From positions 1 through 62,158 of the forward strand of contig JAFGIK010000072.1 in the NCBI GenBank assembly GCA_016929645.1: a DNA stretch of 62,158 nucleotides. Reading direction: 5' to 3'. The position numbers and the translations under genes were made by a program. The notes beneath the pieces were generated by a model. It was not told the DNA's origin. It did not search any database and saw only the letters and a program-made list of their open reading frames with translations. This document shows positions 8,142 to 43,600 of the stretch, one piece after another (positions within the stretch are counted from its first letter, which is position 1; the number at the start of each line of letters is the position of its first letter). The DNA comes from Candidatus Dojkabacteria bacterium. Its GTDB lineage: Bacteria > Patescibacteriota > Dojkabacteria > SC72 > JAFGCJ01.

Positions 8142-9178
8142 TGAATATATTGTTCAATATTATTTTCATGCTCAGAAAGAGTCGTCGCATAATGCAATAT
8201 CCCGTCTGAGTCATTAAGGTAAAACCAGTAATCATTAGCTTCCGGATACAGAATTGCTTTGATGGTTTCTTCACCTGGGTTGCTTATTGGCGTTGGTGTA
8301 AACCCTACATATTTTCTGGTATTGTATGGTGTATCCAGCTGTAAATCCTGATAAGTAATCTCATGAGTCCAGTCTTTAAAATAGTATAGTAGAGTAGCAT
8401 CAACCTCAAAAGCCCAACCATTTTCATATCTTCGGATTAAAATGTCGGCAACTAATGGTCGATCAGCAGAGCTTCGTGTCTCTCTTTCAAGTATTGATGC
8501 AAGGGTAACTATTTCGTAGAGTGAAAACTGAGAATTTTCTATCTCTGCCTCATATTTATCATAAATTTTGCTTTGAAAACCATCAACAAGAATTGAATTT
8601 AAGACGTATTCTGCAGTTGCATCAGCAGGAAATCTGTATGTGTCCGGATAAATAAATCCCTCAAGTGGTTTACCCTCTGGAACTGGTATGCCAAGTGAAA
8701 TAGCCATGTCTGGTGTCTCAGTCAATGCAAGAAATTCATCTTTACTAAAATCTTGTGTTTCATTTAATAAAAAGGCTTCATTAATTAGATCTGCGATCTG
8801 AGTGACCATAAGTCCTTCAGGTATTGTAACCCAGACATCTGGTAAGCTTGCGTTTTGCAGATATTCTGCAATTTCTTTCATTGAGCTGTTTTTGGGAAAT
8901 CTAAATGTGCCTGCTTGAAGGGATGTGCCAAGATCTGACTGTTTGATGTAAAGGTCAAAGTATAAAGTGGATTTGATAAGGCCTTTCTCGTAAAGAATTT
9001 CAGCAATATCATCTGTTGTCGAACCTTCGTCTATTGTAATTTCAATAATCTTGCTAGATTCATTGAACGGTGAGTCAACGTATTTTTTGTAATCACTGTA
9101 CACATAGAGACCAGCAGAAATTGCGACTACCATTAAAATTAGTCCGATTATGATAATTACTTTAACAACTTTTTTCAT
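8138..9178 (-). CDS. mltG: Endolytic murein transglycosylase MltG (YceG-like)
   Basis: N-terminal TM helix and YceG pattern (GTFRFPKNSSMKEIAEYL, EGFIYPDTYRF, ASILERE, PYNTRKYVGFTPTPISNPG). The gene has a 4-nt overlap with the downstream LCP gene and a 17-nt overlap with ruvX. Confidence 0.85.
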   Translation of the reverse strand: MKKVVKVIIIIGLILMVVAISAGLYVYSDYKKYVDSPFNESSKIIEITIDEGSTTDDIAEILYEKGLIKSTLYFDLYIKQSDLGTSLQAGTFRFPKNSSMKEIAEYLQNASLPDVWVTIPEGLMVTQIADLINEAFLLNETQDFSKDEFLALTETPDMAISLGIPVPEGKPLEGFIYPDTYRFPADATAEYVLNSILVDGFQSKIYDKYEAEIENSQFSLYEIVTLASILERETRSSADRPLVADILIRRYENGWAFEVDATLLYYFKDWTHEITYQDLQLDTPYNTRKYVGFTPTPISNPGEETIKAILYPEANDYWFYLNDSDGILHYATTLSEHENNIEQYIQ

Positions 9179-9584
9179 GATTTAAAAACTCTTGTAATAT
9201 TATTGCTGCTGCGACGTCATCTTTGTGGGATTTTGCTTGTCTTTTGTGCGGACGGGCAGCTGCTAAACTAGAAAACTCTACCATATTTTGGGCCTGTTGG
9301 GTAGAAAAAGTTTCATCCCAAAATTCGATATTAATCTGAGTTATTTCTTGAACTTTTTGGGCAAATGATTGAACTCTTTTTTGATTTTCTTCGTTTGCGA
9401 AAGATGATAGACCTATGATTATCTTTTTAACTTCAAGTTTCTGGCAAATTTCATTAATATTGTCGATTGCCTGCCTGTCGGATTTCCTTTTTATGATCAA
9501 GTGAGGTTGGGCAATTATGCCTTTTTCGTCAGAAATCGCTATGCCTATATTTTTTGTGCCAAAATCAATTGCTAAATGTCGCAT
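9162..9584 (-). CDS. ruvX: YqgF/RuvX family nuclease (Holliday-junction-resolvase-like, pre-16S rRNA processing)
   Basis: MRHLAIDFGTKNIGIAISD, a length of 140 aa and the terminal DDVAAAIILQEFL are typical of RuvX. The alaS-ruvX-mltG order matches that known in Firmicutes. Confidence 0.8.
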   Translation of the reverse strand: MRHLAIDFGTKNIGIAISDEKGIIAQPHLIIKRKSDRQAIDNINEICQKLEVKKIIIGLSSFANEENQKRVQSFAQKVQEITQINIEFWDETFSTQQAQNMVEFSSLAAARPHKRQAKSHKDDVAAAIILQEFLNHEKSC

Positions 9585-9634
9585 TGATGTATTTTAACAT
9601 GGATAGTGACGATTTGTTTTCTTGTCATATTTTT

Positions 9635-11428
9635 TTACCCCACCACCGCCTTAATCCTCTTTACTCCAGCGCCTACATTTTCCTGCTTTACTATTTTGAA
9701 GCTGCCAAGATCCTTGGTGTTTTGAACATGAGGGCCGCCGCAGATTTCTATAGAGATGTTTTTGTCGCCACGCCCGATAAAGTAGACTTTGACAATTTCG
9801 CCATATTTTTCTGTAAAAGCAGAGTGGGGTGCGAGTTCCAAAGCCTTTTGTTTGTCCATTTCTTCGAAATATACCTCAAGACCGGTGTTTATCTGTTCAT
9901 TTATGATATCTTCGACCTGTTTGACTTGTTCTGGTGTCAGCTTGGTATCATTCGGGAAATCAAACCTAAGCCGATCTGGATTAATGTTGCTTCCAAGCTG
10001 TTTTACGTGGTCTCCTAGGACTTTTCGTAATGCTGCGTTAAGCATATGGGTTGCCGTATGATATTTTTTTGACATTTCCGATGTATCAGCAAGGCCACCT
10101 TTGAAAAATCCTTTTGCTGCTGAGCGTGATTTTTCTTTATGTGAGTTGAAAGCATTTTCAAAATCTTCTGTGTCGATTTTATTAAGTCCTTTTTCTTCAA
10201 GAATTTCTTGAGTTATCTCAATTGGAAATCCATATGTCTCGTATAGATAAAATGCATCTTCTCCTGAAATTTTGTTATTTTCTTGAATAAATTTATCAAG
10301 TTTTTTCATGCCGTCGTTTATTGTTGCCTTGAATTTTGATTCTTCTTCTTTGATAACGTCAATAATTTGCTGTTTTTCATCGGCTAATTTTGGATAAATT
10401 GGGCTGAACTGATCAATTGCGACTGTTGCAACTGTATCGGATAGATTTTCAGTAATGCCTAGCTGTCTTGCATGTCGGACTGATCTGCGGATAAGTCGTC
10501 GAAGAATGTAGCTTTGCTCGGTTCTTCCTGGTGTAATACCATCCATTATCATCCATGTGGCAGCCTTTATGTGGTCAACGATAACTCTTTGTGATTTGGT
10601 GTTCTCGTTTGAGCTTATGCTCTTAACTTTTTCTAAAATTGGTAAATAAATGTCTGTGGAGAAAACGCTTTCTGTATTTTGCGAAATGTAAGCGTATCTA
10701 TCAAGACCTCCACCAAAATCAATATTATGTCGATCCAATTTTGAATAATTTCCATCTTTTTTGAGATATTCCATGAATACATTATTGCCAAGTTCTGTGT
10801 ATTTTCCGCATCCACAGCTAGTATTGCAATCAGGGTTGCATTTTGGTTTTCCCGTATCGTAAAAAAACTCAGAGCATGGGCCACATGGACCTCCGCTTTC
10901 AAGCTCCCACCAATTGTGTTTTTTGTTATCGCCAAGCGGTTGAATGCGCTCTTGTGCACCAACTTCTGCTGCTATTCCATAACTTTTGAAAATTTCTTTC
11001 CATGTGTCGATAGCACACTGATCTATTCCTATGTTTTTATCTCCTTCGTATACAGAAGCATAGATATTGCTAATATCAAAACCAAGCTCATTAATAAAAA
11101 ATTCTACAGACCATTGGAGAGCTTCTTTTTTAAAGTAATCATTTAAGGACCAATTTCCAAGCATTTCGAAACTTGTGCAATGAATATCATCTCCAACTTC
11201 GTCAATATCTATTGTTCGAATACATCGTTGGACATTTGTGAGTCTGGTGCCTGACGGGTGTTTTTCTCCAAGCAAAAATGGTACAAGCGGGACCATTCCT
11301 GCGTTAACGAAGAGCAGAGTAGGGTCATTCTCTGGTACTAGTGGAGAATTTGGAATTTCAATGTGACCTTTACTTATCATGAATTTGAGAAACTTCTCTC
11401 GTATCTCAAGGTAGCTTAATGTTTTCAT
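9635..11428 (-). CDS. alaS: Alanine--tRNA ligase, short form ending after the editing domain (no C-Ala domain)
   Basis: Class II AlaRS N-terminus (FLKFMISKGHIEIPNSPLVPENDPTLLFVNAGMVP, FEMLGNWS). Editing-domain motifs are HTATHMLNAALRKV and ICGGPHVQNTKDLGSFKIVKQENVGAGVKRIKAVVG, which lies at the very C-terminus. Length is 597 aa. Confidence 0.9.
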   Translation of the reverse strand: MKTLSYLEIREKFLKFMISKGHIEIPNSPLVPENDPTLLFVNAGMVPLVPFLLGEKHPSGTRLTNVQRCIRTIDIDEVGDDIHCTSFEMLGNWSLNDYFKKEALQWSVEFFINELGFDISNIYASVYEGDKNIGIDQCAIDTWKEIFKSYGIAAEVGAQERIQPLGDNKKHNWWELESGGPCGPCSEFFYDTGKPKCNPDCNTSCGCGKYTELGNNVFMEYLKKDGNYSKLDRHNIDFGGGLDRYAYISQNTESVFSTDIYLPILEKVKSISSNENTKSQRVIVDHIKAATWMIMDGITPGRTEQSYILRRLIRRSVRHARQLGITENLSDTVATVAIDQFSPIYPKLADEKQQIIDVIKEEESKFKATINDGMKKLDKFIQENNKISGEDAFYLYETYGFPIEITQEILEEKGLNKIDTEDFENAFNSHKEKSRSAAKGFFKGGLADTSEMSKKYHTATHMLNAALRKVLGDHVKQLGSNINPDRLRFDFPNDTKLTPEQVKQVEDIINEQINTGLEVYFEEMDKQKALELAPHSAFTEKYGEIVKVYFIGRGDKNISIEICGGPHVQNTKDLGSFKIVKQENVGAGVKRIKAVVG

Positions 11429-11482
11429 TGTGTTTTAATAATAAATTATTTTGTGATTGCTGGTTGTGGGCGAGTTTTTTTG

Positions 11483-11815
11483 AAAAAAAAACTCGCCCAT
11501 ACATACTAACCTTTCAGTATGCAAGGACGAGTTTTCATCGTGTTACCACCTTGTTTTGTATAAATATTACTATCTATACCTTGTTAACTGACTTTTATAA
11601 AATTTGCATTTTTCTAAAATCCTGCAAATCTAAACATCAGTGTCTCATTTTTTTGTCTCAGTGAGCTTCTGAGAGAAGTTAATAATTAAAAATTTATGAA
11701 ATTCAGGAGAAAAACGAACTTCAATAAATTTTAATAATTCCTTCTACTGCTCGTGGATTGGCCTCTTAAGAAATTCATCTTTCAGATCTTTCCAGTCAAT
11801 GCAATTATTAAATTA
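11483..11815 (-). promoter_or_regulatory. T-box riboswitch leader (alanine-specific) controlling alaS
   Basis: On the minus strand the antiterminator is AAGG[UGGUAAC]ACGA-UGAAAAC-UCGU-CCUU (11552-11523), with core GGUGGUAACACG versus consensus GGUGGUACCGCG. The alternative terminator pairs AAAACUCGUCC (11535-11525) with GGGCGAGUUUU (11498-11488), followed by a U-run to 11483. Ala codons GCC-A (11762-11760) and GCU (11666-11664) sit in upstream loops. The downstream gene is alaS. Confidence 0.75.
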
Positions 11816-11820
11816 ATAGA

Positions 11821-11849
11821 ATTATACAATCTATAACAATCTTTCGCAA
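11821..11849 (-). promoter_or_regulatory. Sigma70-type promoter TTGCGA-N17-TATAAT for the alaS T-box leader
   Basis: The reverse complement of 11821-11849 reads TTGCGA aagattgttatagattg TATAAT. It lies directly after the stop of the upstream gene. Confidence 0.5.
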
Positions 11850-11851
11850 TT

Positions 11852-14800
11852 TCAAGATCTTTTTGAACCAGCATCAAAGCTTCTTAAGACTTCTGGTGGT
11901 GGTTCTGGTTTACCGTTATTTTCTGATATCTGAGATGGGTTCATTCCTTGTGGTTTTTGAGAATAAGCAGAGAGATCTTTTTTCTTCTCTGGTTTTCCTG
12001 AATTCTCTGGTGTAGTAGGTGGAACTTCGTCTTGCAACTCTTTGTCAGATGGGAATATTGACCCGTCTGTTGTAACCTTGGTAAATGCATTTTGAACATC
12101 AGCTTCTGTCAAATCTGAAATATCTGTTGTTTTTACTGCTGGTTCAGTATCCATTGTTGAATTAATTGATGAATTTGCTGAAACTGTTGGTTGTTGATTT
12201 TGAGGATAATTCAAATTGCTAGTTTGATTAGTGGGATCTTGGTTTAAGATTGGTACAGATAGGTTTCCATCATCTGGTATTGTGTTATTTGTAGGCAATG
12301 TTGTTGATAATGAATTCATATCTATAGCGTTTTTATCAACAGGTGTATTTGGCGTATTATTATTATTTTCTGGCTCTGTGATTTTATTAATCTCTTTATT
12401 TTCTTGGGTATCAAAATCGCTTGTTGGTGCAGTTGATACAAATTTGATTTCCTGATTTTTTGCCAGATTATCGGCATCTAACTCATTAATGGCTCGATCA
12501 TTTATATCATTTACTACCTGTTTGTCTTGTGCTGGCTTTGCGCTAATTTCGGGTGATTGTTGTACTTCGGGTTCTTTATTGATTATTTCTTTGGTAACAA
12601 TAGGTCTCTCCGTATCTTCTGTATAAGAAGGGAATACTACTGGTACTGGTGCGATATTAATATTTTGAACAGGTTCGGTAGATTGTGGTAATGTATCTTG
12701 ATCAGTATTTTGAGTATCTTTTACATTAGTAGGTGTCTCTGTTGGTCCAAAATTGTATATACCATTGTCAGCAATTAACTCAGGCTCTTTTTCTTTGGGT
12801 TCGACCATTCCTACAGGCGCTATTGGACTTGGCTCTATTGGTTTGGATTGAAGCGGTGATGGTCCTATTGGTTCATTAGATTTATATGACGAATCAAAAT
12901 ATTCCTCTTCTTCTCTTGATCGTACCCAGGCCGAGTAGAGCATCCAAGGAACCATTATTGCAAGAAGAATAATGACGAGTCCTATTGCTAGAAGTAGTCC
13001 TAAATTCTTTGAAATCTTTAATCCAAGAATATTTATATAATCTTCGCTTTCCTTTTCACTAGTAGATTCTTCTTCTATTGTGAATGTCCATGTTTTCTGT
13101 GCCTGTTTTCCCTCAGTATCTGTAAATGTTACTAAAACTTTATGGCTACCATATTCAATTGGTTTATCTGGTTCATAAACAATAGAGCCTTCAAATTCAC
13201 CTTCTCCTCGAACTTCTACTTTGTCTGTAATGTCTTGATCATCTAGTTTTATGGTAACTGATCCCTCATCAATAGTATTGCCAGTGGAAGCAAATAGTTC
13301 TGCATAAATAAGTGGTTTATTTTCTTTGATTTTGCTGTTATTTGCTGGTTTAACATTTTTTACTTGAGGATAACTCTCTTCAATTGTTGGCTTTCCTTTA
13401 TCGTCATCCTTGCCACTGTCACCACCATCTCCTCCTGCTTTGCCACCAGGGACAGTGATTACACCTGATATCCCGTATCCTATTCCTACAGGAGATTGGT
13501 TATCTGTAGCTTTTACAACGATATAGTAGGTGCCAGGGGCAATGTCTCCTGTGTTCCAAATGTAAGCATTGTAATCGTAGCCGATATTTCCAGCAATTAA
13601 TGTCCAGGTAGATTCATTTGTAGGATCTGTTGCAAGATACACATCATATCGAATTATCTGATTTCGATCTGTTGCATTCCATTCAATTCTTACTTGTTGA
13701 TTCTTTTGTATTTGTGTATTTGCTGTAGGTTGAACTACTGTTACTACTGGGGTATCGTTTGATGGTGAATCCACATTTAAGACCCAAATTTGAGTAGAGT
13801 AGTGATCATGATATCCGTCGTTTAGTGATAGTACTATTTTAAAGCTTCCTGCTCTATCTGCAGTACCAGAGAATGTACCTCTAAATTCTCCATCTTCATT
13901 TTTATTTAACGAAAAGTTAATCCAGCCAGAATCATTAATCACCATGTATTCAATTGCATCCTCTTCTGGGTCAATTGCTTCTACGGTATATGAGTATGTT
14001 TGTCCTACTGCTATTGATGTGCCTGGATTAGAATCTTGGTAGGGATCTGTCTGATATTCTGGAGAGCCGTTATCTCCGGGTAATATTACAAATACTCCAA
14101 TGTCCTTGGTATCGCTTGGCTCCAAAACGCCTGTACTTGTAAGTTCGTCAATACAGCGAGTTGTTTTACCGCTTGTATCCATAATTTCTGCGTAAATTTC
14201 ATATTTTCCTGTGTCCTGATAGGTATACCTTAGTGGTGGAGTGCTATCTTTGTTTATTAAAACTTCGTTTTCGTTTGAAAAATCCCATTGCAAAGTATTC
14301 TCAATATCGCCATCCTTTTTTACTGTGAACTTCACTGCGGATATTCCATCATCTCTATCATAACCTTGAACAATATATGAATTTTCATATCCTTGAGGTA
14401 TTGATTCTCGGTTAGTACCATTAAACATTAATGTACATGTTGGTGCCTGATTTTCATATTGGTCTTCAACATTCAAGGTGAAAGACTGAACATCGCAAAA
14501 ATATTTACCTTCATTGTCTTGATCAGGGGAGACTGCGGTTACAGTAACCTGATATGACGTTTGTTCTATTGTATTTGGATTCTGCCAGACTAATGTCTTT
14601 TGGTCAGCAGCGATGGTTAGTTCAGAAGGTGGATTGTTTTCTATATTGTCACATGCATCTCCACATTTATTTGAATCACATCCTAGTTCTATTTCAGAAC
14701 TAATGGAATTTTTACCCGCTGTTTCTAGTTTTACTTCGTACTGTATTCCAGAGTAGGCTGTATTTACATCTTCTTTGGAAAAATCTGTTGTGAAATATAC

Positions 14801-14935
14801 AGGTTGTACTTCTTCCGCTGCTTTGTTTCTGATATCTTGTATTGTTTGTGCTCCTATTACAAAAAGAGGTAATGCTCCAAGTAGGAGCAGAGTTGAAATC
14901 AGTGTAAGTTTTCTACTTTCTTTCATTTTGGACAT
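11852..14935 (-). CDS. Giant type-I membrane surface protein (Ig-like/PKD-like beta-sandwich ectodomain, single TM, long disordered cytoplasmic tail)
   Basis: 1027-aa ORF with signal peptide LTLISTLLLLGALPLFVIGAQT. He_PIG-like segments are present (GQTYSYTVEAIDPEEDAIEYMVINDSGWINF). The TM helix LGLLLAIGLVIILLAIMVPWMLYSAW is followed by about 365 aa of P/E/T/N/Q-rich low complexity. Confidence 0.6.
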   Translation of the reverse strand: MSKMKESRKLTLISTLLLLGALPLFVIGAQTIQDIRNKAAEEVQPVYFTTDFSKEDVNTAYSGIQYEVKLETAGKNSISSEIELGCDSNKCGDACDNIENNPPSELTIAADQKTLVWQNPNTIEQTSYQVTVTAVSPDQDNEGKYFCDVQSFTLNVEDQYENQAPTCTLMFNGTNRESIPQGYENSYIVQGYDRDDGISAVKFTVKKDGDIENTLQWDFSNENEVLINKDSTPPLRYTYQDTGKYEIYAEIMDTSGKTTRCIDELTSTGVLEPSDTKDIGVFVILPGDNGSPEYQTDPYQDSNPGTSIAVGQTYSYTVEAIDPEEDAIEYMVINDSGWINFSLNKNEDGEFRGTFSGTADRAGSFKIVLSLNDGYHDHYSTQIWVLNVDSPSNDTPVVTVVQPTANTQIQKNQQVRIEWNATDRNQIIRYDVYLATDPTNESTWTLIAGNIGYDYNAYIWNTGDIAPGTYYIVVKATDNQSPVGIGYGISGVITVPGGKAGGDGGDSGKDDDKGKPTIEESYPQVKNVKPANNSKIKENKPLIYAELFASTGNTIDEGSVTIKLDDQDITDKVEVRGEGEFEGSIVYEPDKPIEYGSHKVLVTFTDTEGKQAQKTWTFTIEEESTSEKESEDYINILGLKISKNLGLLLAIGLVIILLAIMVPWMLYSAWVRSREEEEYFDSSYKSNEPIGPSPLQSKPIEPSPIAPVGMVEPKEKEPELIADNGIYNFGPTETPTNVKDTQNTDQDTLPQSTEPVQNINIAPVPVVFPSYTEDTERPIVTKEIINKEPEVQQSPEISAKPAQDKQVVNDINDRAINELDADNLAKNQEIKFVSTAPTSDFDTQENKEINKITEPENNNNTPNTPVDKNAIDMNSLSTTLPTNNTIPDDGNLSVPILNQDPTNQTSNLNYPQNQQPTVSANSSINSTMDTEPAVKTTDISDLTEADVQNAFTKVTTDGSIFPSDKELQDEVPPTTPENSGKPEKKKDLSAYSQKPQGMNPSQISENNGKPEPPPEVLRSFDAGSKRS

Positions 14936-15063
14936 TAATACAATATATACTATTAATTGTGTTCAAATCAATGAGTACCTGATTTTGACACGTTTGCTTA
15001 TCAGAAATTAAATTGATTTGACTTAAGTCTTCTTGTTTCGGATGTTTTTTAAAATTACGGGTC

Positions 15064-16380
15064 TTATTGTGTTGTCCCTCTTATTTGAGCATTTTTTTCA
15101 TTGATTGTCTCTGTTGCTTCCATAAGTGCTGCGTTTTCATTTGATCTTCCATCAACGACATCGCTAATAGCTTTATTTATTGCAGCTTCTGCTGTACTTT
15201 GGTCAACCATTTTCCAGCTTTCCATTGTTGGAGCCATCCTGATAAATGCTCCGACATATGGGTCGTTTGAAATGCTGCTTGCCATGTCTATTCTCGAATA
15301 TGGTTCTCCGAAAGTTCGATTTTTTGAAGCTGCGGCATACATTGATTCCAATTGTTCCTTTTCGCTTAAAAATTCAATAAACTTCCATGCTTCAAGTTGA
15401 TTTTCCGATTGTATTGAAACTGCATCACCCCAATACATTGAATAATTAATATCCACGTCGCTTCCTGCTATCTGTGGTAATTCAGCTACTTCAAAGTTGA
15501 CTGCTGAGTTCATATTAAAAATGTCAAAAACTCTCCAGCTTGGAGCAAACATGATTGCAAGTTTGCCTTCAATAAACATATTCAAATCATTTGGCAGTGA
15601 GCAAGACCAAACTTCATGTTCGTTTACATAATCCGTATAGACTTTTAGTGCTGTCTGCCCGCGAGTATTGTTAAATGTCGCTTCAGAGTAATCAGAATTT
15701 GTCATTGTCACGTTATTTTGAAGCATCAATGCAAACATGATATCTGCGGAGTGGTTAATGTTATTTGAACATCCGAGTGCAGCACCTGCTTGAGTAATGT
15801 TTCCTGAATAATCTGTGAGCGTAAGCTCTTTAGCAACTTCAATTAAGGTATCCCAATCTTTTGGTGGTTCTGTGATACCTGCTTTTTCAAAAATATCTTT
15901 GTTGTAGTACATTGCAAGCCCATCAATTTCAAGAGGAATTGCGTAAATATTGCCATCTGATCCTGTAAAGTCATCTTTTGCAGTTGGGTAAAATGCTTGT
16001 TGATATTCTGATGCAGTCATTACTTCAGAGGGAAGGGATGCCAATCTGTCTTCGAATTTATATGTCCAGGTATTGTTAATTCTAACTATGTCTGGTGTGG
16101 TGATTTCTGTATTTCCTAATCTTTCATAAAGATTATCTTCGTATTGGGTAATTCTCTTTTGCTCATACTTAATTGTTATGTTTGGATGTTGAGATTCGTA
16201 TTCATCTATGACCTCCTGCATATGAGCATCTGGCTCCCATAGTCCCCAATAAACAAGTTCTATTTGATCTCCACTTGTACTTTTTCCACTCTTGTTTTTG
16301 CTAAATATTACAAAGCCAATAATTGCTAAGATGATTAAAAGTACAGCACCACCGATGAGTAACATTTTTTTCTGATCCAT
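15064..16380 (-). CDS. ABC-transporter extracellular solute-binding protein (family 1, sugar type), membrane-anchored, orphan
   Basis: N-terminal TM helix (MLLIGGAVLLIILAIIGFVIF) is followed by the typical SBP_bac_1 layout (ELVYWGLWEP, PDIVRINNTW, GNIYAIPLEIDGLAMYYNKDIFEKAGI, MFAPSW). No permease or ATPase gene is adjacent. Confidence 0.7.
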   Translation of the reverse strand: MDQKKMLLIGGAVLLIILAIIGFVIFSKNKSGKSTSGDQIELVYWGLWEPDAHMQEVIDEYESQHPNITIKYEQKRITQYEDNLYERLGNTEITTPDIVRINNTWTYKFEDRLASLPSEVMTASEYQQAFYPTAKDDFTGSDGNIYAIPLEIDGLAMYYNKDIFEKAGITEPPKDWDTLIEVAKELTLTDYSGNITQAGAALGCSNNINHSADIMFALMLQNNVTMTNSDYSEATFNNTRGQTALKVYTDYVNEHEVWSCSLPNDLNMFIEGKLAIMFAPSWRVFDIFNMNSAVNFEVAELPQIAGSDVDINYSMYWGDAVSIQSENQLEAWKFIEFLSEKEQLESMYAAASKNRTFGEPYSRIDMASSISNDPYVGAFIRMAPTMESWKMVDQSTAEAAINKAISDVVDGRSNENAALMEATETINEKNAQIRGTTQ

Positions 16381-24008: not shown

Positions 24009-25367
24009 ATGGATATAACAGAATTTTCTGCAGCAGTAAATCAAATATGCTCTGAAAGAGGAATCGATCCGGATGAAGTATACGAGGCCATTGAGTCAGC
24101 TGTTCTTGCTGCATACCATAAAGATTATGGAGGTGGTGAGTCTCTTAAAGCAGAAATTGATCGGAATTCAGGAGCCGTTCACATAATTGCAGATAAGAAG
24201 GTTGTAAAGAAGGTTACTGAAGAGGATACTCAAATTTCCTTAAAAGATGCAAGTAAAATCGAACCAAATTTGAAAATTGATGATCATGTCGAGATCGAGA
24301 TTCCTGTTGATGGATTTGGGAGAATTGCAGCTCAGACAGCTAAACAAGTAATTCTACAAAAATTTAGAGAATCTGAAAGAGATGCAATTATCTCAGAGTT
24401 TAAAGGTAAGATAAATACTGTTGTTACAGGATTAATTCAAAGGATGATCGGTTCTACGGCGGTTGTCGAAATTGGTAAAGCTACTGCGTATATGCCTCCA
24501 GAAGAACAGATTCCAAATGAATTTTATAAAATTGGAGAAAGATATAAATTTTATGTTAAAGAGATTAAAGACAATCAGGATTTAATTGTTTCAAGGGCTG
24601 TTCCTGAGTTTCTTATTGAGCTTTTTAAGATTGAAGTTCCTGAAATTGAATCAAATACTGTAGAAATAAAGGCTGTAGCAAGAGAGGCTGGATCGCGAAG
24701 TAAACTTGCAGTAATTTCTAATCAGGAGGGTGTTGATCCAATTGGTTCATGTGTCGGTCAGAAAGGTGTTCGTATTGCAAATATTATGAGTGAACTTGGC
24801 GAGGAGAAAATTGATATTATTGAGTGGGATCCAGAAAAAAATGTTTTTGTAGCAAATGCTCTTGGTCCTGCACAGGTTAATAACGTTGAGATTAAAGATG
24901 AAGATATTGCAAAGGTTCTTGTGGATGATGATCAGTTATCACTCGCTATTGGCAAGGATGGTCAAAATGTTCGTCTTGCTGCTAAATTAACAGACATGAA
25001 GATTGATATAACATCTCCAGGGCTTAGAGATGCACAGGAGTCCAAGAAGGATGATGAATCTGAGGACAAAGGATCAACAAACGAAACTGAAGAGATAAAG
25101 AGTAAAGGAAAGGCTGCATCTAAAAAGAAATCTGTTAAAAAATCAAAAACCAAGAGTGTTAAAAGTAAAACTAAGAAATCAAAGGATGCAGCAAAATCAA
25201 AGAATAAAGATGCTGCTTTATCATCAAGGATTTTGGGAGTTTTAAAGAAAGCGGAAGTATCTGTTGATAGCTTAAAGAAGATGAAAGAAGCAGATATAAA
25301 GAATATAAAAGGAATTGGTGCTAAAGCATTTGAAGAAATTATAAAATTTGTTAAAAATGGCAAATAG
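24009..25367 (+). CDS. nusA: Transcription termination/antitermination factor NusA with Lys-rich linker and C-terminal HhH-like tail
   Basis: N-terminal domain, S1 domain (TGLIQRMIGSTAVVEIGKATAYMP) and KH domains (PIGSCVGQKGVRIANIMSELGEEKIDII; SLAIGKDGQNVRLAAKLTDMKIDI). Confidence 0.95.
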   Translation: MDITEFSAAVNQICSERGIDPDEVYEAIESAVLAAYHKDYGGGESLKAEIDRNSGAVHIIADKKVVKKVTEEDTQISLKDASKIEPNLKIDDHVEIEIPVDGFGRIAAQTAKQVILQKFRESERDAIISEFKGKINTVVTGLIQRMIGSTAVVEIGKATAYMPPEEQIPNEFYKIGERYKFYVKEIKDNQDLIVSRAVPEFLIELFKIEVPEIESNTVEIKAVAREAGSRSKLAVISNQEGVDPIGSCVGQKGVRIANIMSELGEEKIDIIEWDPEKNVFVANALGPAQVNNVEIKDEDIAKVLVDDDQLSLAIGKDGQNVRLAAKLTDMKIDITSPGLRDAQESKKDDESEDKGSTNETEEIKSKGKAASKKKSVKKSKTKSVKSKTKKSKDAAKSKNKDAALSSRILGVLKKAEVSVDSLKKMKEADIKNIKGIGAKAFEEIIKFVKNGK

Positions 25368-25740
25368 TAATCTAAAAAGTCAAGTAGTGCATGTTCCGTT
25401 GAGGATGTGTATTGCTTGTCGGGTGAAGAAACCCAAAAAGGAGCTCATTAGATTAGTATTGAGTGAAAAAGGTGTTGTTGTGGATGTGGATGGGAAAATA
25501 AATGGCCGCGGTGCTAATATATGTCCGAGTGAAAATTGCTTTAGTGTTGCAGTCGAAAGAAATATATTTTCGCAGACATTTAAACAAAATTTGAAGAATT
25601 TAGATATTGCATCCTTGAAGAAGAATTTTGATTCTGCTATTGAACAAAAAAAATTCAGAGAAGGCAAAGAAAATATTGTATTTAGGGTGAATAAAGACGA
25701 AGCAGAGGTAAAAGTAAGCAAAAAGTTAACAAAGAAATAA
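25357..25740 (+). CDS. ylxR: YlxR/RnpM (DUF448) RNA-binding protein
   Basis: PLRMCIACRVKKPKKELIRLV...GRGANIC matches the YlxR signature. ATG at 25357 is preferred over the TTG at 25348. Its position between nusA and infB is the conserved one. Confidence 0.8.
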   Translation: MANSNLKSQVVHVPLRMCIACRVKKPKKELIRLVLSEKGVVVDVDGKINGRGANICPSENCFSVAVERNIFSQTFKQNLKNLDIASLKKNFDSAIEQKKFREGKENIVFRVNKDEAEVKVSKKLTKK

Positions 25741-25761
25741 AATAATTTAACGGAATTTTTA

Positions 25762-27375
25762 ATGTCAAAAAAAGAATCAGTGAAAAAAGATAAAGTTAAT
25801 CTTGAATATCGACCACCTGTTGTGGCTCTACTTGGTCATGTTGATCATGGTAAAACTACAATATTAGATAAAATCCGTAAAACTTCAATTCAAAATGCAG
25901 AAGTCGGTGGTATTACTCAATGCATTTCCGTTTCAAGTATAAAATACGAGGGTAAAGATATAACATTTATTGATACCCCTGGTCATGAGTCATTTGATTT
26001 GATGAGATCAAGAGGCGGTGAAGTTGCTGATATTATTTTGCTTATTGTTTCATCAAAAGATGGAGTCAAGCCTCAGACAAAGGAGTCCATTGAAATAATT
26101 AATAGTACTGGGACATATTGCATTGTTGTGATAAATAAATACGATATCCCCGGTATTGATTTGGAGAAAGTAAAACGAGATATTTCCAGTGCTGGTTTGA
26201 CGGTAGAATCTCTTGGTGGAGATATTCCATGTGTCGAGCTTAATGCTAAAACAGGTGAAAATATTGAAGGACTTCTTGAGATGATTAATCTTGTTGCTGA
26301 AGTAAATAAGATTAACGTGAAAAAGGAAACTGACAGTAAAAAATTTGTTGGTTGTGCGTTCATATTAGAATCATGTAAAGATAATAGTATTGGTAATGTA
26401 TCTACAGTTCTTGTTATTTCAGGAACTCTTAAAAAAGGTGACTACATTATTTACTCAAAGAATAATAAGCTTATCAAAGAGAAGATCAAGGGCTTTATTT
26501 CACCAAATGGACTTTGTGTAAGCTCAATAGACGAGGGGTATGGTGGTCAAATCATTGGATTATCAAATGTTCCAGAGCTTGGGAGTAGGATTTATTCTGT
26601 TATATCAGATTCTATTGATTTATCCGAACTTTTTACTAAGGAGATACCTGTATCAGAACTTGTATCAAAAACTGAATCAGATAAAGAAGTTTTGGCTGAA
26701 AAATCAACCTCAGATCTTTTGGCTGAAATGTATCAAGCTCAAAATCATCAAAATAATAAAAAGGGCGGTGAGATTGTTGTATTAAATGTTATTATTCGAG
26801 CTTCAACCCAGGGAGCACTTGATGCTGTACAAAACAGTCTAAAGGAACAAAATAAAGGTACGGAGATAATAAGAATAATTGACGCTTCCATTGGGAGTGT
26901 GACCCTAAATGACGTGATATATGCAAAAAACATGGGCAGTATTGTTATTGGGTTTGGGGTAAATATAGATAAAGCAGCTGAGGAATATGCTAGAAGAGAG
27001 AAAGTACTTACGAGAAGTTACAATCTAATATATGATCTAGTTGATGAAATTACAGATGCAGCCTTAGCTATGCAGGCTCCTGAGGAAAAAGAGGAGATTA
27101 CCGCCAAGTGTAAGGTAAAGCAAATTTTCGTGCTTTCTAACGGATCTAAGGTTATTGGTATGAGAGTTGAAGAAGGAGAGGTTAAAAATGGATTGAAATG
27201 TCGTATTATTCGAGGTCAGGAAATTATTGAGCTTGGTACTATTACTTCAATGAGAATAAATAAAGAGAAGGTTAATAAGGCCTCTAGTGGTATGGATTGT
27301 GGTATTGTTGTCGATACGAAGCATGAAGCTCTAGAGGGCGATATGCTCCATTGTTATCGTATTGTCAAGGGTTAA
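25762..27375 (+). CDS. infB: Translation initiation factor IF-2, short form (no long N-terminal region)
   Basis: RPPVVALLGHVDHGKTTILDKIRKT, FIDTPGHESF, VVINKYD and C-terminal IF-2 domains. Length is 537 aa. Confidence 0.9.
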   Translation: MSKKESVKKDKVNLEYRPPVVALLGHVDHGKTTILDKIRKTSIQNAEVGGITQCISVSSIKYEGKDITFIDTPGHESFDLMRSRGGEVADIILLIVSSKDGVKPQTKESIEIINSTGTYCIVVINKYDIPGIDLEKVKRDISSAGLTVESLGGDIPCVELNAKTGENIEGLLEMINLVAEVNKINVKKETDSKKFVGCAFILESCKDNSIGNVSTVLVISGTLKKGDYIIYSKNNKLIKEKIKGFISPNGLCVSSIDEGYGGQIIGLSNVPELGSRIYSVISDSIDLSELFTKEIPVSELVSKTESDKEVLAEKSTSDLLAEMYQAQNHQNNKKGGEIVVLNVIIRASTQGALDAVQNSLKEQNKGTEIIRIIDASIGSVTLNDVIYAKNMGSIVIGFGVNIDKAAEEYARREKVLTRSYNLIYDLVDEITDAALAMQAPEEKEEITAKCKVKQIFVLSNGSKVIGMRVEEGEVKNGLKCRIIRGQEIIELGTITSMRINKEKVNKASSGMDCGIVVDTKHEALEGDMLHCYRIVKG

Positions 27376-27431
27376 TATTGATGATATAATCTGCCTATAG
27401 GTTTGATTATGTTAGTTCATATTTCATCTTA

Positions 27432-28841
27432 ATGGGTTTACCATTAGATCTTTTTTCTAAGGTCAAAAAGAAAATTTTAGATTCGAAAAACGTATTACTC
27501 TGTATAAATACCAGTGCTTCTTTCGACACTCAAATTTCTGGGTTAGCACTTATTATTTACCTTAAAGATCATAAGAAAAAGTTATCAGTATTTTTTAATG
27601 GAGAACTTTCATCAAAGATGGAAGGCTTCTATTCTGCCTACGAATTTGACAGGATTACTGAGCTTAAGCCTTTGAATTATGTTATTACGATTGATCATAA
27701 GGCTGGTAATATTGAAAAAGTTAGTTATGACGATAAAGATGGTAAATTTAGTCTTTTTATTACTCCTTCAGAAAGTGATTCTGAGTTTGATTTTACTAAT
27801 GTTGCCTATGATAAATCCGGTGGTCAGTATGATCTGATTATTACTTTAGGCGTTAGATCATTATCATGGCTTGGTAACATTTATGAGAAGAATAAATCTA
27901 TATTTGATAATGAAAAAATTATTAATATCAACAATCTATCAGGTAACCAGGATTATGGAAACTATAAACTTGTTGATACAGATAAATCTGTTGCTGAAAC
28001 TGTTTATAGACTTTTACAACAGAACTCAACAGAGTCTTCATCAACTATTGTTCAGTTATTGTTAATGGGATTAATGGATAAGTTCCAATTGTTGCGAATG
28101 ACTGATTACAAGATTTCGACTGTTGAGACAATGATGTCTTTTGTTAGAGCAGGTGGTGATATAAAACGGGCTGTAGATGAAGTTTATTTCAATAAGGATT
28201 TCAAAGGATTTAGTCTTGTTCAAAGGGTTTTTAATAATTTGAAAATAGATAAAAAATCAAAAATTTGCTGGTCTGGTGTTACGACCTTTGATATCAAACA
28301 ATGTGGTATTGGTAAAAAAGATATTCTTCTTGATGGACGAGTTGTTTTTAATATTTCCAATAACTTTAATCTTGCATTTGTTCTTTACGAGGTTGAGGAG
28401 GATGAGGTTTGGGGTGAAGTAGATTCTAATAATGAAAATATCGATGTTAAAAAACTGTTCAACGTGATGAATGCCGTTGGTGACGAAAAAAGAGTCAAAT
28501 TTATAATTAAGGGTAAAAGTCTTGCTCAAGTAGAAACAGAAATTTTAGAATTCATAAAATCTAAGTTACACCTAGAAGAAATAAATCCTGAAGTAAATAT
28601 TACCTCTAATGCGGTTTCTGCAAATATCCCAGAGTCCAGTTCCGGCTCGCAAAATGCACAAAATAATGGAAGTATTGAAACCGGTCAGGCGAATGCCGAT
28701 TCAATTAATGAATCTTCAAGTTATAACGCTGATAAGCCGGAGGGCTTGACAAATGGTGACAATATAAGTAAAAATAGAACTACCCCGATTAATAGGAATA
28801 GCGATAGTCTTGTAATTCCGCCCCCGGTTAACTCGATTTAG
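27432..28841 (+). CDS. DHH/DHHA1-like (NrnA-like) protein with degenerate catalytic motifs and low-complexity tail
   Basis: The layout parallels NrnA. VLLCINTSASFDTQISGLALIIYLKDHKKKLSV sits where H-x-x-P-D-G-D-A-x-G-S is expected. ITIDHKAGN replaces DHH, and VRAGGDIKRA replaces GGGH. The C-terminal 90 aa are S/N-rich. Confidence 0.45.
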   Translation: MGLPLDLFSKVKKKILDSKNVLLCINTSASFDTQISGLALIIYLKDHKKKLSVFFNGELSSKMEGFYSAYEFDRITELKPLNYVITIDHKAGNIEKVSYDDKDGKFSLFITPSESDSEFDFTNVAYDKSGGQYDLIITLGVRSLSWLGNIYEKNKSIFDNEKIININNLSGNQDYGNYKLVDTDKSVAETVYRLLQQNSTESSSTIVQLLLMGLMDKFQLLRMTDYKISTVETMMSFVRAGGDIKRAVDEVYFNKDFKGFSLVQRVFNNLKIDKKSKICWSGVTTFDIKQCGIGKKDILLDGRVVFNISNNFNLAFVLYEVEEDEVWGEVDSNNENIDVKKLFNVMNAVGDEKRVKFIIKGKSLAQVETEILEFIKSKLHLEEINPEVNITSNAVSANIPESSSGSQNAQNNGSIETGQANADSINESSSYNADKPEGLTNGDNISKNRTTPINRNSDSLVIPPPVNSI

Positions 28842-28942
28842 TTATTTATATTAGATTAAGCTACGGAATAGAATCAATTATAAACGGCTTAACAAAGATA
28901 ACTCTTGAATGAATTAATTTAGTATGTTAAATTGAATATAGT

Positions 28943-29209
28943 ATGAGTCTTACTACTGAAGAAAAAAACAATATAATAAAAAAATTTGCTGCTCATGATA
29001 AGGACACGGGTTCACCTGCAGTACAAATTGCAATTCTTACTGAAAGAATTGTTCGCTTAAGTGATCATCTTAAATCTCATAAAAAAGATAATCATTCAAG
29101 ACGAGGTCTACTCAAACTTGTTGGTAAAAGACGAAGACTACTTGAATATCTTAAGGCTAAAGATGAATCTATGTATGGCAAAATTATTAAAGAGATCAAA
29201 GTCAGTTAA
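28943..29209 (+). CDS. rpsO: 30S ribosomal protein S15
   Basis: [49 protein letters not shown]. Confidence 0.95.
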
Positions 29210-29237
29210 GCGCTTTTTTCCCTCAATGATGAATGTC

Positions 29238-29265
29238 AAATACTCGTACTCGAGTATTTTTCTTT
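29238..29265 (+). terminator. Hairpin + T-run between rpsO and pnp (terminator/attenuator)
   Basis: AAATACTCG (29238-46), loop TACT, CGAGTATTT (29251-59), then TTCTTT. Confidence 0.55.
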
Positions 29266-29388
29266 ATTTAGGCCATGTTTTCTTGGTATAGCAATCGTTG
29301 TATTATTCTTATAAAATATAACTAATTATTTTTTTGGAAAATTCAGCATTTTTGCTAATTGATTATTTTAATTTTAATAAATTTTATA

Positions 29389-32758: not shown

Positions 32759-32790
32759 TGACTGATTACTGATTTGTACAGGGATAAAAA

Positions 32791-33456: not shown

Positions 33457-33506
33457 GTTCCTGATTAATTGTTTATGATATTAAATTTTATTGAAAAAAA
33501 TAATAA

Positions 33507-36997: not shown

Positions 36998-37026
36998 GAG
37001 CGGGTGCACCTTCGGTGCACCCGCTC
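36998..37026 (-). terminator. Strong GC hairpin with UUCG-type loop after ORF 37047-38294
   Basis: GAGCGGGTGCACC (36998-37010) and GGTGCACCCGCTC (37014-37026) form a 12-13 bp stem around ttcg. There is no U-tract. Confidence 0.5.
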
Positions 37027-43349: not shown

Positions 43350-43470
43350 TCATGATTTGTTTTTCAATAACATTATGCATAAATTAACAAGATCACTGAT
43401 TTTTTAGTGTTTTTATTTTAAATAGTAGAATTTAGTTCTAGAATACAGCCAAATAAAAGGATATATAGTT

Positions 43471-43554
43471 GGAGAGGTGGCTGAGTGGCCGAAAGCGCTC
43501 GCTTGGAGAGCGAGTATACCTATGGTATCGCAGGTTCAAATCCTGTCCTCTCCG
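43471..43554 (+). tRNA. tRNA-Ser (anticodon GGA)
   Basis: Acceptor GGAGAGG/CCUCUCC plus discriminator G. Anticodon stem CUCGC/GCGAG with loop UUGGAGA. Long variable arm AUACC-UAU-GGUAU and T-loop GGUUCAAAUCC. No CCA is encoded. Confidence 0.9.
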
Positions 43555-43600
43555 TTTTTCATTCTCTTAATTTCTCATCTAACTTTTAAAATTTTTCTAA

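Follow-up and report, generated by a model that had tools for sequence, protein, structure and literature searches.

An alanine-specific T-box riboswitch very probably controls the alanyl-tRNA synthetase gene (alaS) of a Dojkabacteria-like (Patescibacteria/CPR) bacterium by transcription attenuation. The stretch of DNA analysed here (the window) is 62,158 nucleotides long and comes from a host with about 35% G+C, whose nearest named relatives are Candidatus Dojkabacteria. On sequence grounds, we regard it as confirmed that the leader before alaS is a genuine T-box, tRNA sensing itself being predicted: the leader matches the Rfam family RF00230, carries a canonical discriminator, and both of its alternative pairings are maintained across five related leaders. 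A preliminary description of this DNA had already proposed a T-box before alaS, and nearly all sequence elements named there were found where it had placed them.

All elements lie on the minus strand, in the order promoter (11849-11821), leader of ~330 nt, discriminator (11553-11522), terminator (11535-11483) and alaS (11428-9635). The promoter consists of TTGCGA (11849-11844), a 17-nt spacer and TATAAT (11826-11821). It starts 3 nt past the stop codon of the upstream gene and, with 10/12 matches, is the top promoter-like site between 9000 and 16000, in agreement with its initial assignment. Leaderless relatives (L213, L214, L211) have the same promoter type, TTGCGN-17-TATAAT, immediately 5' of alaS. 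The open reading frame downstream of the leader encodes an AlaRS (PF01411 and PF07973) of 597 aa without the C-terminal C-Ala domain, and is followed by ruvX, yceG, a lytR-family gene and holA. A second promoter 3' of the terminator was considered and rejected: by direct reading, there is no acceptable -35 element between the terminator and alaS in either the window or the related locus L082, although L082 does have a TATAAT there.

Of about 50 Dojkabacteria-type alaS loci, just four have this T-box leader, namely the window, L082, L086 and L009; among the contigs of the closest AlaRS relatives examined (n=12), only L082 and L086 have one. These four alaS leaders and the ileS leader L097 form our five-leader comparison set. 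L097 came from a metagenome scan with the pattern CAAGGTGGNAMCRCG...CGYCCTTG, in which the matches listed were mostly Firmicutes-type, with no Dojkabacteria-type alaS among them; the same scan supplied a control set of 118 T-box leaders.

On a 601-nt stretch, RF00230 gave a match of 40.6 bits (E = 1.5e-7) covering Stem III and the antiterminator. The family match suggested earlier as a check was thus obtained at the E-value threshold but not at the curated gathering cut-off of 93 bits, where the window yields no T-box match. Related alaS T-boxes all score below 93 bits as well (L009 43.9, L082 33.0, L086 28.9, others 72.7 and 60.9), as does the ileS leader L097 (57.3). The shortfall arises because upper Stem I positions are deleted in the alignment: 69-74 of them in L009, L086 and L097, where the K-turn base is aligned, and 84 model positions in the window, where Stem II of the model is put at 11600-11631. 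Since the curated threshold misses all of them, T-boxes of this short-Stem-I type are probably under-annotated in metagenome-assembled genomes.

Stem I, Stem II and the specifier codon

Stem I of the window spans 58 nt (11804-11747) and comprises a K-turn-like base, a helix UGGA/UCCA, a specifier loop and a distal hairpin. The base reads UUGC[AUU]GA-C-UGGA ... UCCA-C-GA-GCAG, with a C-C apposition, and contains the sequence pattern of a K-turn (GA motif), UGC[AUU]GA ... GA-GCA. The same motif is model-aligned in L009, L086 and L097; among the alaS leaders, a K-turn base under Stem I is recognisable in three of four, L082 being the exception. The specifier loop of the window is a side bulge between two helices, with AAGA on its 5' side and G-GCC-AA on its 3' side, and the distal hairpin (11786-11764) is short, AU-rich and only 7 bp long. 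The elbow-binding platform of class I and class II T-boxes, an interdigitated double T-loop built from an AG bulge and the distal loop, is absent from the window's Stem I. By energy, Stem I alone is not significant (z = -0.6).

Assignment of the specifier is comparative, from the four alaS leaders and L097. In each of the four alaS leaders (window, L009, L082 and L086), the Stem I loop carries the alanine codon GCC at its 3' edge (11762-11760 in the window, followed by AA), and the helices that surround it, wholly different in sequence among the leaders, are still paired. At the equivalent position, the ileS leader L097, of the same design, has AUC-A, which identifies GCC as the specifier. The Chloroflexi alaS T-boxes L034 and L055 have GCC-A as well, and GCC fits the C-rule for the third codon base (PMC7583486, PMC10482949). 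We regard GCC, not GCU, as the specifier confirmed by these sequence comparisons; the original assignment of GCC-A is borne out by three orthologous alaS leaders and by the AUC of L097.

The codon is presented in two ways. In the window and in L009, which share one Stem I layout, it occupies a side bulge (5'-AAGA or AAAAA / 3'-G-GCC-AA). In L082 and L086 it lies in an apical loop, UARAUGCC, and in L097 in an apical loop CAAUCA; L086 and L097 combine this apical GCC or AUC with a K-turn base. A Stem I without platform, with an apical-loop or side-bulge specifier, is that of class III/IV T-boxes. The Stem I initially taken to be ultrashort (~56 nt) is indeed short and platform-less, but its GCC does not occupy an apical loop; the class III layout with an apical specifier, which is ultrashort in the strict sense, is that of the relatives L082 and L086.

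A second alanine codon, GCU (11666-11664), had also been thought to be displayed, in conjunction with an S-turn. It is held by the hairpin CUCAG-AAGCUCA-CUGAG (11673-11657), and if it were the specifier, the 5' hairpin with GCC would be unrelated. GCU is the alaS specifier in Bacillus, and here it sits, as an alanine codon, in a hairpin loop. However, GCU has no constant place in the equivalent hairpin loops of L009, L086 and L082, whereas all four alaS leaders retain GCC, beside the K-turn that is model-aligned as the Stem I base. The triplet at the place of GCC becomes AUC with ileS in L097, and it is GCC that the C-rule fits (PMC7583486). We thus reject GCU: neither this codon nor its supposed S-turn is conserved among relatives, and it is extremely unlikely to be the specifier; the hairpin that contains it may correspond to Stem IIA.

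Stem II (11746-11674) has a lower helix, AGAAG (11745-11741) / CUUCU (11678-11674), and a long AU-rich extension, and folds with -15.3 kcal/mol (z = -3.1). Among the leaders, the pairs of this lower helix covary (AGAG/CUCU, GGAG/CUCC, UAGAG/CUCUA, UUGGG/CCCAA). Its internal loop is S-turn-like, with GAA (11740-11738) on the 5' side and UUAA on the 3' side. All four alaS leaders have a GAA / (GC)UAA internal loop, and L097 has a canonical S-turn; the S-turn of the alaS leaders is approximate only, with GAA opposite UUAA or GCUAA, not AGUA. What had been described as an AU-rich, Stem II-like hairpin is therefore Stem II itself, containing this lower helix and a GAA...UAA loop.

Another hairpin, AGAUUUGCA ... 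UGCAAAUUU (11631-11600), lies in the Stem IIA/B-linker region, and this is where the Rfam model's Stem II was placed. No convincing IIA/B pseudoknot was found in the four alaS leaders, and one is clear only in L097. Candidate pairings between a loop and downstream sequence, CUCA/UGAG in the window and CCUC/GAGG in L086, were set aside, none being conserved.

Discriminator and terminator

AAG (11582-11580) precedes Stem III, GUAUAGAUA-GUAA-UAUUUAUAC (11579-11558), which is followed by AAAAC and has a folding z of -7.3. By direct reading, the flanks RAG-Stem III-AA are present in 5/5 leaders, with a different stem sequence in each; conserved purine flanks are a known property of Stem III (PMC7583486, PMC11297988). 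The antiterminator (11553-11522) is formed by helix A1 (C-AAGG/CCUU-G), a 7-nt bulge UGGUAAC (11548-11542) and helix A2 (ACGA/UCGU), the discriminator core being AAGG[UGGUAAC]ACGA-UGAAAAC-UCGU-CCUU at 11552-11523. It aligns to the T-box sequence of RF00230 with a posterior near 1, and its 9 pairs are 100% paired across the five leaders, with one compensatory change. The earlier designation as a textbook T-box antiterminator is upheld, and its bulged form is conserved in relatives. The antiterminator alone has a folding energy of -2.8 kcal/mol. A73 is the usual discriminator base of tRNA-Ala, and the U of UGGU would face it. There is no tRNA-Ala gene on the window contig or in any compared locus, and for this organism both that base and the GGC anticodon are presumed.

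The terminator (11535-11483) is formed when AAAACUCGUCC (11535-11525) pairs with GGGCGAGUUUU (11498-11488), with one G-U, ahead of a U9 run (11491-11483). In the transcript terminated at 11483, the terminator is formed in the minimum free energy fold (-31.7 kcal/mol, z = -7.2). Across the five leaders, 92.7% of the terminator's cells are paired and 3 pairs have changed on both sides; only 3/500 shuffles were as good, the covariation statistics being thin with five leaders only. The pairing and the U9 run are as first described, but the nested hairpin is longer than had been thought, with 10 bp (11523-11500). A simple terminator scan did not list the T-box terminator because this nested hairpin exceeds the loop limit of the scan.

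A further pairing, between the 5' half of the T-box sequence (CAAGGUGGU) and alaS codons 5-7, was predicted in the window and in L082. It scores equally in the leaderless L210 and L208, and we thus attribute it to a coincidence of Ser-Tyr-Leu codons.

One may ask whether such a leader is in decay and has lost its response to tRNA, with alaS expressed by leaky read-through. As just four of the roughly 50 related alaS loci have one, the leader is evidently dispensable and has often been lost, and a low Rfam score and the lack of both a Stem I platform and a clear pseudoknot point in the same direction. In the window, however, all defining pairings are intact and the T-box sequence fits the consensus with a posterior near 1; the helices covary among otherwise diverged leaders; and a strong terminator before an essential gene would be costly if there were no working antiterminator. 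Decay is thus very unlikely, and we retain a tRNA-responsive T-box as the preferred reading.

The helix after the terminator

Just past the U run, the preliminary description had noted a near copy of the terminator 5' strand and proposed a three-way competition. This third helix (11499-11467) pairs U-GGGCGAG-U7 (11499-11485) with A7-CUCGCCC-A (11481-11467) across a loop UUC, and thereby re-uses the 3' strand of the terminator. It has 15/15 complementary positions and a 3-nt loop, and no other perfect close inverted repeat in the 62-kb window is as long; its folding energy is -20.8 kcal/mol (z = -8.0). In the minimum free energy fold of the full transcript (-36.8 kcal/mol), the third helix is formed in place of the terminator.

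Among the 118 T-box leaders, taken from the matches listed, the window ranks first for such a helix and L082 second, with nothing comparable in the 116 others. The counterpart in L082, GGCGAGAUUUUU-GUUAUC-AAAAAUCUCGCC, is 12/12 paired. In both leaders, the third-helix pairing is better than the terminator pairing, and between them one position co-varies in all three strands. The helix is absent from L009, L086 and L097. A search for its palindrome in viral contigs gave no matches, and a second protein search (query P0005), in which the closest AlaRS relative reached 68%, gave no further examples. Following the helix on its 3' side is a CA-rich segment, CACAACCAGCAAUCACAAAA (11466-11447), conserved with L082; the whole region from T-box to start codon aligns well between the two loci, though their AlaRS are only 65% identical.

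Since the third strand is made after the termination point and U run, it cannot join the termination decision. On the modelled folds, it would re-partition the read-through RNA only and would not compete during the decision. The three-way competition therefore survives in part: the helix exists and recurs with a compensatory change in L082, but it comes too late to act in the decision.

It is possible, though on balance somewhat unlikely, that the third helix has no function at all, and that its third strand is a local duplication or template-switch copy of the terminator 5' strand, common to the window and L082 by descent. Its near identity to that strand would be explained in this way; leaders of the same T-box design (L009, L086 and L097) do without it, it is made too late to affect the decision, and its removal in silico leaves the accessibility of the start region unchanged. 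On the other hand, a comparison of the window with L082 shows the third strand and the next 20 nt to be as conserved as the T-box core, in two loci whose Stem I/II regions are barely alignable and whose AlaRS have diverged to the extent given above. A passive copy would also have to account for a helix that is perfect in both leaders and beats the terminator pairing in both, for the position changed in all three strands together, and for the lack of anything comparable in the 116 other T-box leaders among the matches listed.

Two specific roles were considered and abandoned. The third strand as an insulator of the start region is not supported, because the predicted accessibility of that region is 0.63 whether the strand is intact, shuffled or deleted. 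As a mimic of the tRNA acceptor (a GGG...CCC stem, then ACAACCA), the helix lacks a G3:U70, and L082 does not share the ACCA. If the helix does have a role, our best guess, based on the predicted folds, is that it would act as a latch of the read-through mRNA.

With the third strand present, two folds of the full-length RNA are about 6 kcal/mol apart, as would suit a mainly post-transcriptional, bistable switch like actinobacterial class III/IV, in which the third helix would be the alternative partner. A short Stem I is otherwise tied to thermodynamic, translational control (PMC7583486, PMC10482949). However, the start codon is located 55 nt past the U run, and its predicted accessibility is equal in both folds (0.62-0.63); the sequestered strand contains no Shine-Dalgarno-like sequence. 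L009, L086 and L097 have the terminator and lack the third strand, and a U9 run after a composite hairpin of 21 bp is a strong intrinsic terminator signal. Control that is mainly post-transcriptional is thus highly improbable, and we favour transcription attenuation.

Proposed mechanism and relation to known T-boxes

Transcription would start a few bases past the TATAAT at 11826-11821. Stem I (11804-11747) would then display GCC and a following purine in its side bulge for pairing with the anticodon of tRNA-Ala(GGC). Because Stem I has no elbow-binding platform, the S-turn of Stem II (11746-11674) would probably strengthen anticodon binding, in the manner of actinobacterial class III/IV T-boxes. 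In uncharged tRNA, the 3' ACCA would pair with UGGU of the bulge (11548-11545), with the U facing A73. This pairing would stabilise the weak antiterminator (11553-11522) and allow RNA polymerase to read into alaS. Otherwise, the 3' strand of the antiterminator would pair with 11498-11488, and the terminator and U9 run would stop transcription at about 11483. In read-through RNA, 11481-11467 would capture the terminator 3' strand in a more stable hairpin, so that the terminator would not be re-formed; this third hairpin, 40 nt ahead of the start codon, may give protection independently of the switch and leave the discriminator free. The leader would then be a three-state T-box, with one tRNA-dependent decision at the U run, after which the read-through mRNA is latched with its discriminator open, a reading that we put forward tentatively and consider doubtful.

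The window's leader shares much with class I transcriptional T-boxes (RF00230; B. subtilis tyrS type; Firmicutes/Chloroflexi alaS, including L034 and L055): the discriminator with RAG-Stem III-AA, A1, a 7-nt UGGN bulge and A2, a mutually exclusive terminator with a U run, a K-turn at the base of Stem I, a specifier matched to the gene (GCC-A also in Chloroflexi alaS) and the same class of regulated gene. It differs from them in its 58-nt Stem I without distal platform (69-84 model positions deleted), in the extra helix past the terminator, and in scores far under the gathering cut-off.

With class III/IV T-boxes, for which the reviews consulted give actinobacterial ileS leaders as examples (Nocardia farcinica, Mycobacterium tuberculosis; Actinomyces odontolyticus; PMC10482949, PMC7583486), the leader shares a short or intermediate, platform-less Stem I and a K-turn directly followed by a Stem II with an S-turn-like loop. 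By position of the specifier, the window and L009 are class IV-like (side bulge), and L082, L086 and L097 class III-like (apical loop). Short Stem I leaders are mostly translational, with a sequestered Shine-Dalgarno sequence (PMC7583486, PMC10482949). In contrast, the window has alaS as its gene, a Patescibacteria-type host, and an intrinsic terminator with U9 as its output in place of Shine-Dalgarno sequestration. In addition, the apical loops of L082 and L086 are 8 nt, not the 5-6 of class III, and the alaS leaders show no evident IIA/B pseudoknot.

Some lineages have added elements to the expression platform; in staphylococci, glyS has a stem Sa (PMC9177973). The met leader of S. aureus has a long terminator that is cleaved by RNase III (PMC7913692), and the B. 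subtilis thrS leader, as cited in PMC7913692, leaves after processing a terminator that stabilises the mRNA. As in glyS stem Sa and the met leader, the window has extra structure at the terminator/antiterminator region, and, like the met leader, it has a composite terminator helix of about 21 bp through a nested hairpin. With thrS, so far as that citation describes it, the shared idea is a leftover hairpin on the 5' side that protects read-through mRNA. Unlike in these three cases, the third strand of the window is 3' of the U run, pairs with the terminator 3' strand, and would erase the terminator in read-through RNA. We found no T-box with a post-terminator third strand described in the literature consulted, nor in the 116 other leaders among the matches listed; that literature likewise contained no report of a T-box in Patescibacteria-type genomes.

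If the three-state reading is true, the leader would be a natural bridge between one-shot transcriptional and bistable post-transcriptional T-boxes. The third helix may then have arisen to compensate for a platform-less Stem I that captures tRNA slowly. It might make the rare read-through mRNAs more stable towards RNase J or RNase III, or possibly allow uncharged tRNA to stay bound to the leader.

To capture tRNA fast, transcriptional T-boxes are generally said to depend on the Stem I platform (PMC7583486), so a platform-less T-box of the terminator type might work poorly or differently. Reviews pair terminating T-boxes with a long Stem I platform, and a short Stem I with slower translational switches such as those of actinobacterial ileS (PMC7583486, PMC10482949). 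The five natural leaders, four of alaS and one of ileS, contradict that pairing: each joins a class III/IV-like decoding arm to a strong intrinsic terminator, and for the four alaS leaders at least, the sources are Patescibacteria-type genomes. In the window's leader, a truncated tRNA-decoding arm of a kind hitherto described only in actinobacterial translational switches is joined to a transcription terminator. These leaders provide a test case for how much speed in tRNA capture a co-transcriptional switch requires, for the Stem I/Stem II anticodon groove with amino acids other than isoleucine, and for the effect of a post-terminator 'latch'.

A T-box leader upstream of alaS

The leader lies on the minus strand in a 423-nt gap, evident on direct reading, between a 1027-aa ORF (11852-14935) and an ORF (9635-11428) encoding a 597-aa alanyl-tRNA synthetase (AlaRS; PF01411 and PF07973), whose nearest named homologues belong to Candidatus Dojkabacteria (WS6; 59-67% identity). 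This AlaRS is short: the catalytic, tRNA-recognition and editing/SAD parts are present and the C-terminal C-Ala (DHHA1) domain is absent, a form shared, among the loci listed, by hundreds of MAGs from Patescibacteria, Chloroflexi, Kiritimatiellia and some archaea. Downstream of alaS follow ruvX, yceG, a lytR-family gene and holA; the G+C content of the window is ~35%. The top promoter-like site in a scan of 9000-16000 is TTGCGA-17-TATAAT (11849-11821, minus strand). After it, on the same strand, come a hairpin with a K-turn-like base (11804-11747), a long AU-rich hairpin (11746-11674), two smaller hairpins (11673-11657 and 11631-11600), a clean 9-bp hairpin with a GUAA loop (11579-11558), the element AAGG[UGGUAAC]ACGA-UGAAAAC-UCGU-CCUU (11552-11523), GGGCGAGUUUU, complementary to the final strand of that element, with a U9 run (11498-11483), and C-A7-CUCGCCC-A, ending at 11467.

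The preliminary description read this region as an alanine T-box, and with corrections our analysis supports that reading. At the Rfam curated cut-off of 93 bits, RF00230 finds no T-box in the window; by E-value, in a search of 11350-11950, it matches 11657-11520 (40.6 bits, E = 1.5e-7), with Stem III and the antiterminator aligned near perfectly and 84 Stem I positions deleted. The leader thus falls short of the threshold because the upper Stem I is missing. A sub-threshold score is not specific to this locus: two Chloroflexi alaS T-boxes (L034 and L055) score 72.7 and 60.9 bits, and the three leaders orthologous to that of the window (L009, L082 and L086, also upstream of alaS) score 43.9, 33.0 and 28.9, all below 93. 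In folding controls, none of 200 shuffles was as good as Stem III (z = -7.3), the terminator (z = -7.2) or the third helix discussed below (z = -8.0), while 2/200 were as good as Stem II (z = -3.1) and 57/200 as Stem I (z = -0.6). With its E-value-level match, canonical discriminator and downstream AlaRS gene, the leader would work like a T-box and, by its defining features, is one, the Rfam score threshold excepted.

The switch was examined in an alignment, spanning Stem III through the U run, of five leaders: the four upstream of alaS and one upstream of ileS (L097). All nine antiterminator pairs form in all five, with one compensatory A-U to G-C change. The lower terminator helix (11 bp) has 92.7% of its cells paired and three pairs with both sides changed; its covariation score was reached by 3/500 shuffles, and slid registers were 40-60% paired. 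Every leader also has the nested terminator hairpin and the U run. In the window, the antiterminator alone is worth -2.8 kcal/mol, and the transcript to 11483 adopts the terminator fold (MFE -31.7 kcal/mol), its nested 10-bp hairpin lying coaxially. No start codon or Shine-Dalgarno-like sequence lies in the sequestered strand of the five leaders, which together with the terminator and U-run design points to transcription attenuation. We infer both this attenuation and tRNA binding by the leader.

The discriminator is canonical in 5/5 leaders (RAG-Stem III-AA, A1 CAAGG/CCUUG, bulge UGGU-A(A/C)C, A2). The usual discriminator base of tRNA-Ala is A73, which the U of UGGU fits. No tRNA-Ala gene occurs on the window contig or in the related loci examined; the only tRNA genes on the contig are two for tRNA-Ser (43470-43555 and 46932-47021, plus strand; anticodons GGA and UGA). 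At the base of A2, where a conserved G-U wobble forms part of a sieve against charged tRNA (PMC7583486), four of these short-Stem-I leaders carry A-U (11541/11527, alignment columns 46/62) and the fifth, L082, carries G-C. Many metagenomic T-boxes vary likewise at this pair, so the variation is probably ordinary.

A short Stem I displaying GCC

Stem I of the window reads UUGC[AUU]GA-C-UGGA-AAGA-(7-bp distal hairpin)-G-GCC-AA-UCCA-C-GA-GCAG. Its counterparts are GGC[GUU]GA-U-CAG-AAAAA-GGAC-UAU-GUCC-G-GCC-AA-CUG-U-GA-GCC in L009, CAC[UGC]GA-UC-GGGAC-UAGAU-GCC-GUCCC-AG-GA-GUG in L086 and UAAUCUAAAC-UAAAU-GCC-GUUUAGAUUG in L082. The helices flanking the specifier are unrelated in sequence yet paired in all four alaS leaders, and GCC is in each the final loop triplet, before the 3' helix strand. 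The Rfam model, too, takes the GA-motif base for Stem I in L009 and L086, where it passes over 69-71 upper positions.

Among the metagenome-scan matches listed, one more leader has the same design: L097 (10042-10229), upstream of ileS on contig Ga0208872_1000054 (39% G+C). Its Stem I, GGC[GUU]GA-U-GAGG-CA-AUC-A-CCUC-G-GA-GCU, has a K-turn and a 6-nt apical loop, CAAUCA, carrying AUC-A. It scores 57.3 bits with RF00230, with 4 nt in place of 74 Stem I positions. Where the gene is ileS rather than alaS, the triplet at the specifier position is thus AUC instead of GCC, which is the classical specifier test. GCC (11762-11760) therefore stands as the displayed alanine codon. The Chloroflexi T-boxes of L034 and L055 likewise use GCC-A, in agreement with the rule of C at the third specifier base (PMC7583486). 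A second displayed codon had been proposed at GCU (11666-11664); we reject it, as it lies in a hairpin past Stem II and equivalent loops in relatives do not keep GCU.

Directly 3' of Stem I, a helix covaries: AGAAG/CUUCU in the window and AGAG/CUCU, GGAG/CUCC, UAGAG/CUCUA and UUGGG/CCCAA in the other leaders. It encloses a 5' GAA and a 3' (GC)UAA or UUAA, and we read it as a probable Stem II with an S-turn-like loop, extended by a long AU-rich stretch in the window and L082. L097 has a canonical S-turn in Stem II (UUGGG-AAGAA-AGC-GAAA-GCU-CUAGAA-CCCAA) and a compact IIA/B pseudoknot (CGGG-UAUG-CCCG-A-CAUA), followed by Stem III, the discriminator and an intrinsic terminator with U7 rather than a Shine-Dalgarno sequestrator. 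No conserved IIA/B pseudoknot was identified in the four alaS leaders.

The suspected ultrashort Stem I is indeed short and devoid of a distal platform; its class needs refinement. Class III T-boxes have a short Stem I that lacks the elbow-binding double T-loop platform, a 5-6-nt apical specifier loop and a required Stem II, and the class III and IV examples are actinobacterial ileS leaders (PMC10482949). The window and L009, whose specifier lies within a side bulge between two helices, are class IV-like, and L082, L086 and L097 are class III-like, although the loops of the alaS members L082 and L086 are 8 nt rather than 5-6. Membership in classes I/II is excluded for the window, where the platform was tested for and is absent. 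The window shares its decoding architecture with classes III/IV, whereas gene, host group and output differ. In translational T-boxes the stem is mostly intermediate or ultrashort, while transcriptional ones generally require a long Stem I (PMC7583486). The TBDB short-Stem-I model was searched in Actinobacteria genomes and in class I matches with truncated Stem I (PMC7778990). A limited literature search, which is not proof of novelty, found no paper tying T-boxes to Patescibacteria, CPR, Dojkabacteria or Saccharibacteria.

A third helix in the read-through transcript

The terminator 3' strand is re-used in a third helix, U-GGGCGAG-U7 / A7-CUCGCCC-A (11499-11467), which is 15/15 complementary around a 3-nt loop (-20.8 kcal/mol); the window has no longer perfect close inverted repeat. 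Three other perfect short hairpins, intergenic with arms of 12-13 nt (36998-37026, 45501-45528 and 54551-54576; for example GAGCGGGTGCACC/GGTGCACCCGCTC and AAAGGAGGCAGC/GCTGCCTCCTTT), are likely ordinary terminators, partly bidirectional. When the folded RNA extends through the third strand, its MFE structure (-36.8 kcal/mol) contains the third helix instead of the terminator, as do folds of the whole leader in both the window and L082. The L082 counterpart, GGCGAGAUUUUU-GUUAUC-AAAAAUCUCGCC, differs in sequence, with one position co-changed in all three strands (A, U, A for the window against U, A, U for L082), and in both leaders the third strand outpairs the terminator 5' strand. Over 118 non-redundant T-box leaders, the energy of pairing between the terminator 3' strand and the next 45 nt ranks first in the window (-22.2) and second in L082 (-16.8; median -7.0). 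The two leaders align poorly in Stems I/II and well between the T-box and the start codon, including the third strand and the following 20 nt, which argues for selection. The absence of the helix from L009, L086 and L097 counts against a general role.

A three-way competition had been proposed. It holds for the read-through RNA and not for the termination decision, since the third strand is transcribed past the U run, too late to take part. The third strand would block re-formation of the terminator in read-through RNA, and the helix would supply a switch-independent hairpin. A passage in PMC7913692 describes the terminator of the S. aureus met leader as releasing tRNA and being an RNase III target; work cited there has the terminator remaining after processing of B. 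subtilis thrS protect the mRNA. By analogy, and with low confidence, the third helix may act as a latch or protect the mRNA. The window encodes an RNA-metabolism cluster (24009-35195, plus strand) of nusA (24009-25367), infB (25762-27375), PNPase (29359-31557) and RNase J (33507-35195), which bears on the processing of terminated and read-through leader RNAs.

Two more specific proposals were tested and gained no support. For one, shielding of the start region by the third strand, predicted accessibility is 0.63 with or without it. T-box CAAGGUGGU (11545-11553, minus strand) is complementary to alaS codons 5-7, GCUACCUUG (11406-11414, minus strand; 9 bp, -13.7 kcal/mol), and RNAfold closes the full-length leader through this pairing in the window and L082; it is equally strong in leaderless relatives and probably a Ser-Tyr-Leu codon coincidence. 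Past the third helix, the CA-rich, G-poor CACAACCAGCAAUCACAAAA (window 11447-11466; L082 2544-2565) is conserved though the proteins are only 65% identical.

Scattered occurrence of the leader

In a set of 80 alaS loci, sampled at one genome for each GTDB species, the only ones with a T-box core no more than 200 nt from where alaS starts are L009, from a Patescibacteria MAG, and the Chloroflexi loci L034 and L055; in nearly all Dojkabacteria-type loci alaS is leaderless, starting 20-50 nt past the upstream gene. When thirteen of the closest AlaRS proteins were traced to contigs, only L082 and L086 had the leader. L082 carries ~460 nt extra (1731-2195), with no called gene, between the upstream gene and its T-box promoter, TTGACA-17-TAGAAT (2196-2224). 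Carriers thus number 4 of ~50 related loci, and their AlaRS proteins form no joint cluster, so the leader has been repeatedly lost or moved. A promoter of the window type, TTGCGN-17-TATAAT, is kept directly upstream of alaS in the leaderless loci L213 (1150-1215), L214 (1040-1215) and L211 (1040-1215), within or just past the upstream surface-protein gene. Judged from this arrangement, the leader sits between an apparently ancestral promoter and alaS, and in the window it looks inserted there.
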